Source of the DNA: a virus
Lineage: Duplodnaviria; Heunggongvirae; Uroviricota; Caudoviricetes
DNA: 18,845 bases
Reading direction: 5' to 3' (one strand)
Virus record (IMG/VR): IMGVR_UViG_3300015171_000003
Below are positions 17,850 through 18,525 of the stretch, piece by piece; position 1 is the stretch's first letter; the number at the start of each line of letters is the position of its first letter. Under the pieces are notes generated by a model. It worked only from the letters and a program-made list of their open reading frames with translations. It searched no databases and had not been told where the DNA came from. The translations under genes were made by a program, and so were the position numbers.

Positions 17850-17926
17850 TGGAGCCTAATATCAAAAATCGAATTGATATTTTTGCTTTTACCGAAGCAA
17901 TGTTCTTCCACTTGAACTAATTAGGC
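17850..17926 (-). tRNA. atypical or degenerate tRNA-Thr(GGT)-like, 8-nt anticodon loop and 8-nt T-loop
   Basis: Acceptor GCCTAAT/ATTAGGC, D-arm GTTC/GAAC, TTGCT-TCGGTAAA-AGCAA, ATCAA-TTCGATTT-TTGAT, encoded CCA. Confidence 0.7.
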
Positions 17927-18020: not shown

Positions 18021-18269
18021 TTATTCAAAATCATCTAAATGTATCTTAAAAAAATCAACAATCTCTTCCCAAGTTTTAGCACTTTCATTTACTTTTGATC
18101 TATCATCATCATTATCACTCCTATCAAACACTTCTAAAAAATAAGTCCCGTCTTCATTTAAAGAAATGATCTCGCTAATTTCTGAATCACTATAATAATA
18201 AAAATTATCTTCTGGATAATAATTAAAATCACAATATTCTAATATCTCGCGTTGTTTTTCTGTGAACAT
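18021..18269 (-). CDS. acidic hypothetical protein within tRNA cluster
   Basis: 82-aa ORF starting 2 nt after the tRNA-Ser CCA. Confidence 0.7.
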   Translation of the reverse strand: MFTEKQREILEYCDFNYYPEDNFYYYSDSEISEIISLNEDGTYFLEVFDRSDNDDDRSKVNESAKTWEEIVDFFKIHLDDFE

Positions 18270-18271
18270 AA

Positions 18272-18361
18272 TGGCGGAAGTAGTCAGAGTTCAACTGACG
18301 GACCCTTGCGGATCGGCACATTAGCAGTATGCTGTAGAAAAGCGACATCTACGTTACTTCC
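18272..18361 (-). tRNA. tRNA-Ser(GCT), class II, non-canonical D/T loops
   Basis: GGAAGTA/TACTTCC acceptor, G73, CCA, anticodon loop CT-GCT-AA, variable arm with GCAA loop, T-arm GTCAG-TTGAACT-CTGAC. Confidence 0.85.
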
Positions 18362-18439
18362 AATAATCTATAACTATTGTTTGAAATTTTCTTAATAGAT
18401 CAAATCATACGTCATCTATTTAATTTATTTCAAACAAAT

Positions 18440-18525
18440 TGGTAGGAGAAGTGGGATTTAAACCCACGATATCTTGCGATAGATGCTTATGAAACATCTT
18501 GCTTAAATCACTTGCATATTCTCCC
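18440..18525 (-). tRNA. class II tRNA with CAT anticodon (Met/Ile2 anticodon on a Leu-like body)
   Basis: GGGAGAA/TTCTCCT acceptor, A73, CCA, loop TT-CAT-AA, variable arm TATC-GCAA-GATA, T-arm GTGGG-TTTAAAT-CCCAC. Confidence 0.85.

Follow-up and report, generated by a model that had tools for sequence, protein, structure and literature searches.

The question raised by this locus is why two neighbouring tRNA genes of a phage should carry something other than G19–C56 at the base pair that locks the D-loop to the T-loop. The initial annotation had proposed, from a manual alignment, that a tRNA-Ser gene has C19–G56 and that a tRNA gene with a CAU anticodon has A19–U56. The window, by which we mean the whole stretch of 18,845 nt that was analysed, forms the end of a contig of 82,845 nt from an uncultured large phage, with the tRNA genes about 320 nt short of that end. 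The G+C content of the window is 27% and nearly all genes are carried by the minus strand. Its phage-type gene products include a helicase, a PD-(D/E)XK nuclease, a TnpB-like protein, an HNH endonuclease and glycosyltransferases, and it also encodes an Apyc1-like phosphodiesterase, Sir2 and an ADP-ribosylglycohydrolase. The helicase is about 30% identical to jumbo-phage helicases. Because the relatives found with the helicase in the viral and metagenome contigs searched were only 28–34% identical, a comparison of synteny was unusable. A Shine-Dalgarno-like motif was absent from all 30 genes of the window, which fits a host that initiates translation without one, for example a member of the Bacteroidota, and is taken only as a hint. 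Nothing was added by L003, another assembly of this DNA from run ERR4837132, and a scan for promoter and terminator consensus sequences near the tRNA genes gave sites no more numerous than in shuffled sequences.

The first gene, at 18272..18361 on the minus strand, is a class II tRNA-Ser(GCU) gene of 90 nt whose minimum-free-energy fold was the cloverleaf (z −3.2). It was missed by ARAGORN, and RF00005 gave no match even at E ≤ 10 when a 98-nt stretch was searched. Because the gene was invisible to these tools, a class II covariance model, R1, was built from 17 canonical phage tRNA-Ser genes, with all odd-elbow genes excluded. R1 matched the gene over its full length with 53.7 bits (E 6.6e-11). 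The gene was compared to canonical bacterial and phage class II tRNA-Ser, represented by the RF00005 family and the 17 phage genes of R1. It has the same 7-bp acceptor stem with G1–C72, G2–C71 and A3–U70, the same discriminator G73, an encoded CCA, the anticodon loop CUGCUAA, G18, and a long variable arm in which a 5-bp stem is capped by a GCAA tetraloop. The GCU anticodon, G73, G2–C71 and the long variable arm are those of a bacterial-type tRNA-Ser. The 7-nt T-loop, UUGAACU (18288..18294, minus strand), keeps U54, U55, A57 and A58 as in the canonical genes, but by direct reading and in the R1 alignment it has G56, at 18292. Alignment with R1 to canonical tRNA-Ser placed G18 at 18343 and C19 at 18342 (18342..18343, minus strand) in the D-loop. 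Apart from C19–G56 in place of G19–C56, the gene differs from the canonical set by A8, C9, U15 and U21. The core of a tRNA is expected to contain U8, a G15 or A15 that pairs with position 48, and A21. The Ser gene is without U8, without the 15–48 Levitt pair and without A21, and the core of its tRNA may be built differently or be impaired. The gene probably encodes a functional serine tRNA for AGY codons, which make up 28% of the serine codons in the genes of the window.

Next to the Ser gene is an 82-aa ORF (18021-18269), an orphan for which no homologue was found. Its ATG starts 2 nt past the CCA end of the tRNA gene (18267-18274), so that the mRNA of this ORF would acquire its 5′ end when the 3′ end of the tRNA is processed.

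The second gene, at 18440..18525 on the minus strand, is a class II tRNA gene of 86 nt with a CAU anticodon. It was found by ARAGORN, scored 47.7 bits with RF00005, for which the gathering threshold is 29 bits, and scored 56.6 bits with R1. The minimum-free-energy fold was a full class II cloverleaf (z −3.6). The gene has A73, an encoded CCA and a variable arm that is shorter than that of the Ser gene with the same GCAA cap. The RF00005 and R1 alignments both placed G18 at 18509 and A19 at 18508 (18508..18509, minus strand), and the T-loop, UUUAAAU (18456..18462, minus strand), has U56 at 18460 by direct reading and in both alignments; G18, U54, U55, A57 and A58 are all kept. The initial annotation had described the stems and the CCA of both tRNAs as intact. 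The CCA and the cloverleaves bore this out, but the D-stem of the CAU gene is reduced to 3 bp with A13/A22 and its acceptor stem has a G1–U72 wobble.

The CAU gene joins its anticodon to its body in an unorthodox way. A73, the long variable arm and an intact D/T tertiary core (U8, A14, G15 with C48, G18, U55 and A19–U56) are of the tRNA-Leu type, but CAU is not a leucine anticodon (NAG, UAA or CAA), although it is a single base away from CAA. Nor does the gene have the class I body of an elongator tRNA-Met or a tRNA-Ile2 (lysidine), since it is class II with a variable region of 14 nt. By BLAST, the 3′ 28 nt showed 86% identity to tRNA-Leu genes annotated in T4-like phages. The gene shares with the T4-type tRNA-Leu of T4-like coliphages the class II body, A73, the T-stem, the 3-bp D-stem and a near-identical 3′ acceptor strand, and it differs by the CAU anticodon, by A19–U56 in place of G19–C56 and by the G1–U72 wobble. 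The gene probably has a class II body of the leucine type to which a CAU anticodon is joined. Other phage arrays repeatedly contained class II bodies whose anticodon is not one of Leu, Ser or Tyr; examples are L213 and L258 for CAU and L185 and L222 for UAU.

The base assignments at 19 and 56 were supported by two independent covariance models, RF00005 for the CAU gene and R1 for both genes, which upheld the manual numbering and confirmed that both partners are changed in each gene with Watson-Crick pairing kept. A plain MAFFT alignment had mis-registered D-loops without GG, and covariance models were therefore used. Position 56 is unambiguous in both genes because the T-loop has 7 nt between the strands of a 5-bp stem. 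In the Ser gene, the 11-nt D-loop, AUGUCGCUUUU, contains the dinucleotide GC only once; the R1 alignment inserts two bases ahead of G18, and position 19 is assigned from the model alignment (posterior about 0.7–0.8) together with the spacing of the D-loop. Some other C19 genes were aligned ungapped by R1, giving U18/G19 in Ser(CGA) of L154 and L156 and in Leu(UAA) of L223, and in these genes C19 is assigned from complementarity alone. By fold and model alignments, both genes in the window have a 7-bp acceptor stem, a 5-bp anticodon stem with a 7-nt loop containing U33, and a 5-bp T-stem with a 7-nt T-loop. The predicted docking of the loops in both includes G18/U55, U54/A58, a purine at 57 and a Watson-Crick 19–56 pair. 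Neither has G19–C56 itself: the Ser gene carries C19/G56 and the CAU gene A19/U56. Matched bases at 19 and 56 in two genes are expected by chance about 1 time in 16.

A third tRNA-like gene is located at 17850-17926 on the minus strand, with a Thr-type acceptor stem (GCC...GGC), U73 and CCA. It scored 38.8 bits with a class I model and 33.0 bits with RF00005 when a short stretch was searched. This gene retains the elbow G18G19 and C56, and both its anticodon loop (UCGGUAAA) and its T-loop have 8 nt. ARAGORN found one of the three tRNA-like genes of the window, and Rfam at the gathering threshold found none of the three when the whole window was searched, although two of them exceed 29 bits with RF00005 when only a short stretch is searched. 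Thus, tRNAs of this kind are easily lost in annotation, and counts of phage tRNAs may be too low.

Covariation between positions 19 and 56 in the tRNAs of this phage and its relatives had been named as a check in the initial annotation, and viral contigs were scanned blindly with the commonest D-arm fixed, a base other than G at 19 and the T-loop left free. The T-loops were located by acceptor and T-stem pairing only. Among the viral matches listed there were 78 distinct tRNAs, and 70 of these had the complementary base at 56: A19 was paired with U56 in 62 of 65, U19 with A56 in 7 of 12, and C19 with G56 in the single case. The non-G19 D-arm covered at least 12 specificities in viral contigs, with Thr(UGU) the commonest among the matches listed, and C19–G56 was present in other phage tRNA-Ser, tRNA-Leu and tRNA-Pro genes. 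A class I model was built from canonical tRNAs, and an Infernal alignment of the best 150 tRNAs of the listed loci gave 128 distinct rows, with GC at 19–56 in 62, AU in 50, UA in 5, CG in 1 and other combinations in 10. In this set, whose loci had been selected by a base other than G at 19 and in which related sequences each have a row of their own, 19–56 was paired in 92% of the rows compared to 62% in shuffles, none of 500 of which was as high. The covariation score was 0.93, compared to 0.35 in shuffles and at most 0.42 with slid partners, and the association of A19 with U56 was very strong (Fisher p = 2e-29). Outside the selection, 16 of 325 co-resident tRNAs in the listed viral loci had a matched non-G–C pair. 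These results showed a tight coupling of the two positions. They also contradicted the description of G19–C56 as invariant, since matched pairs other than G–C are frequent in viral-contig tRNAs and are present in bacterial tRNA-Gly and tRNA-Ala.

Some tRNAs in the viral loci departed from this pattern. A tRNA-Thr(GGU) at 341-414 of L153 (IMGVR_UViG_3300037258_000931) has the D-loop AGUGAAA and the T-loop UUCAAUU, with G18, A19 and an unmatched C56, and a few other mismatched 19–56 cases occurred. A separate class of tRNAs in L192, L205, L245, L257, L258 and other viral loci has the T-loop UGCRANU and D-loops without GG. It looks like an A18/G55 elbow variant, and its members share arrays with A19–U56 tRNAs. 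Two general causes of the swap were considered and found no support. For A+T pressure as the origin of A19–U56, the G+C content of swap-bearing loci was lower (38% versus 44%), but that of the tRNAs themselves was not (0.557 versus 0.551, p = 0.5). A genome-level factor was not apparent either, as swapped tRNAs were not clustered within loci beyond chance (P = 0.25).

The same D-arm scan was run on one genome per prokaryotic species. Among the bacterial matches listed, 99 of 106 tRNAs had A19–U56 and 5 of 106 had U19–A56, and of the 72 distinct bacterial sequences listed 92% were tRNA-Gly(UCC, GCC or CCC) or tRNA-Ala(CGC). The tRNA-Gly(UCC) of Bacteroides bouchesdurhonensis and Leyella lascolaii has A19–U56 and stands in the gene order Thr-Tyr-Gly-Thr, a 394-aa EF-Tu and Trp, which is the classical housekeeping operon; its neighbours in this Thr-Tyr-Gly-Thr-tuf-Trp operon are all canonical tRNAs. 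This Bacteroidales housekeeping tRNA-Gly(UCC) was found by the D-arm scan at L323 5096-5170 and also in L352, L310 and L339, and further bacterial swap loci were L313, L283 and L289. U19–A56 occurs in the tRNA-Gly(GCC) of some Saccharibacteria and A19–U56 in the tRNA-Ala(CGC) of Opitutia. The exact D-arm was present in just 5 of 301 sampled Bacteroidota genomes, and a phylum-wide trait found no support. Like the CAU gene, the Bacteroidales tRNA-Gly(UCC) combines a natural A19–U56 with an otherwise canonical elbow. It differs from the phage genes in that it is class I, chromosomal and confined to a single isoacceptor family, whereas the two phage genes belong to class II, and one of them has the rarer C19–G56. 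The swap is used more broadly in phage tRNAs than in cellular ones. The presence of A19–U56 in a housekeeping tRNA-Gly indicates that the pair is tolerated by cells. In a literature search that lacked many subscription journals, no paper describing natural A19–U56, C19–G56 or U19–A56 tRNA pairs was found.

Compensatory exchanges of the same kind have also been engineered. In human and bovine mitochondrial tRNA-Ser(UGA), serylation was lost in G19C and regained by A19:U56 or C19:G56 (PMC10412605). The charging of Aquifex aeolicus tRNA-Leu was unmeasurable with G19C, and G19U:C56A regained 0.54 of kcat/Km (PMC2377443). Cleavage of Thermus thermophilus pre-tRNA-Gly by the protein-only RNase P PRORP3 was unaffected by G19A/C56U (PMC4797305). 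Charging or processing was thus kept in these constructs, including Ser and Leu systems, although they were studied in vitro with mitochondrial, Aquifex or plant-type enzymes and the genes here are natural phage genes. Recognition of the elbow has been reviewed as mainly a stacking on the flat outer face of the 19–56 pair (PMC4810234).

We consider it the best explanation, with a probability of roughly two in three, that the locus holds two real and probably functional phage tRNA genes with a compensated, isosteric and nearly neutral elbow pair and no dedicated device. At the lock between D-loop and T-loop, one Watson-Crick pair would have been exchanged for another, C19–G56 or A19–U56. Because G18, U54, U55, R57 and A58 are all retained, the two loops should interdigitate normally and present the usual flat base-pair face on the outside of the elbow. 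The factors that stack on this face or measure the L-shape, namely RNase P, the ribosomal L1 stalk and L5, the CCA enzyme, SerRS and LeuRS, should still accept both tRNAs. The compensatory change may have passed through a G–U wobble intermediate and been nearly neutral, and the frequency order A–U >> U–A > C–G is the one that this path predicts. C19–G56 requires two transversions and an unpaired intermediate, and neutral drift therefore explains it less easily. The two genes look like maintained tRNA genes because of their stems, their CCA and a raised G+C content of 50% (Ser gene) and 40% (CAU gene) compared to 27% for the genome, and we infer that both are expressed, matured and charged. The proposal that they are selected, functional tRNAs was partly supported to that extent. 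Neither gene had a homologue in exact-word scans of viral contigs or in BLAST against GenBank phages, which leaves selection on these particular genes putative; the BLAST yield of the region was a T-arm match to a canonical tRNA-Asp and the 3′-end similarity to T4-type tRNA-Leu. The preferred reading is also weakened by the swap in two of the three tRNA-like genes, more than a background of roughly 2–5% would give, and by the odd core of the Ser gene, which was missed by two standard finders.

The oddities of the Ser gene could instead mean that the cluster is degenerating and out of translation, with the complementarity at 19–56 a coincidence or a relic. All three tRNA-like genes are aberrant in some way: the Ser gene with A8, U15 and U21 escaped ARAGORN and RF00005, the second gene joins a class II body to a CAU anticodon and a G1–U72 wobble, and the third, a Thr-like gene, has 8 nt in its anticodon loop and in its T-loop. 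The cluster also sits between the HNH endonuclease gene and the contig end. However, decay under the A+T pressure of a 27% G+C genome would break stems first, and in all three genes every stem is fully paired and the CCA is kept. Both elbow changes are moreover matched on either side, and phage tRNA arrays elsewhere repeatedly contain class II bodies joined to unexpected anticodons. We therefore regard degeneration as unlikely. A role outside decoding, in which the RNAs are tRNA-shaped decoys for tRNA-binding host proteins or signals for processing a downstream mRNA, would suit the gap of 2 nt between the CCA of the Ser gene and the start codon of the following ORF, where tRNA processing would define the mRNA 5′ end, and the unorthodox match of anticodon to body in the CAU gene. 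Both anticodon loops are canonical, with 7 nt, U33 and a purine at 37, and the discriminators suit Ser (G73) and Leu or Met (A73) as in working tRNAs, which makes such a role very improbable.

The swap could also be adaptive, with a non-G–C elbow evading a host factor that reads G19–C56, to which the host tRNAs stay sensitive; a defence ribonuclease, a T-loop-cutting toxin or a modification enzyme would be candidates for such a factor. Evasion of this kind was suggested by the initial annotation. We know of no system that discriminates tRNAs by the bases at 19–56, and none was found in the literature examined. It would fit the spread of the swap over at least 12 viral specificities, compared to the 92% of tRNA-Gly and tRNA-Ala among the bacterial matches listed, and also the presence of two different swapped pairs in two of three local tRNA-like genes, one of them the C19–G56 that is hard to reach by drift. 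Counter-defence-type genes are present in the window as well, including those for the Apyc1-like phosphodiesterase and the ADP-ribosylglycohydrolase. On the other side, the A–U pair also serves housekeeping cellular tRNAs, the third tRNA-like gene retains its G–C elbow, and swapped tRNAs are unclustered within loci beyond chance (P = 0.25). In documented cases, the phage tRNAs were likewise shown or proposed to differ from host tRNAs where the conflict matters, but the difference lay in the anticodon stem-loop or in expression and never in the elbow. The T5 tRNA-Lys escapes PARIS through its anticodon stem-loop (PMC11464382), the T5 tRNA-Tyr escapes retron-Eco7 through high expression (PMC11555353), and a study on mycobacteriophage tRNAs reportedly places escape from a tRNA-cleaving defence in the anticodon stem-loop (PMC10264068). 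Here, there is no linked nuclease, and nothing connects the swap to such a defence. Adaptive escape thus seems quite unlikely. More doubtful still is that the non-G–C pair is a selected phage disguise from a putative host factor that would read the outer elbow pair; if true, this would account for the contrast between many phage isoacceptors and mostly tRNA-Gly and tRNA-Ala in bacteria.

With the compensated, nearly neutral pair as the preferred reading, the locus contributes two further examples of a tolerated elbow variant and no new principle. What is new is the context, in that the same pair is found in housekeeping bacterial tRNAs and that exact swaps are functional by published mutagenesis. 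The textbook "invariant" contact needs pairing only, and not G–C, both in nature and in mutagenesis. The contrast between phages, in which many isoacceptors carry the swap, and cells, in which it is mostly tRNA-Gly and tRNA-Ala, offers a route to what enforces G19–C56.
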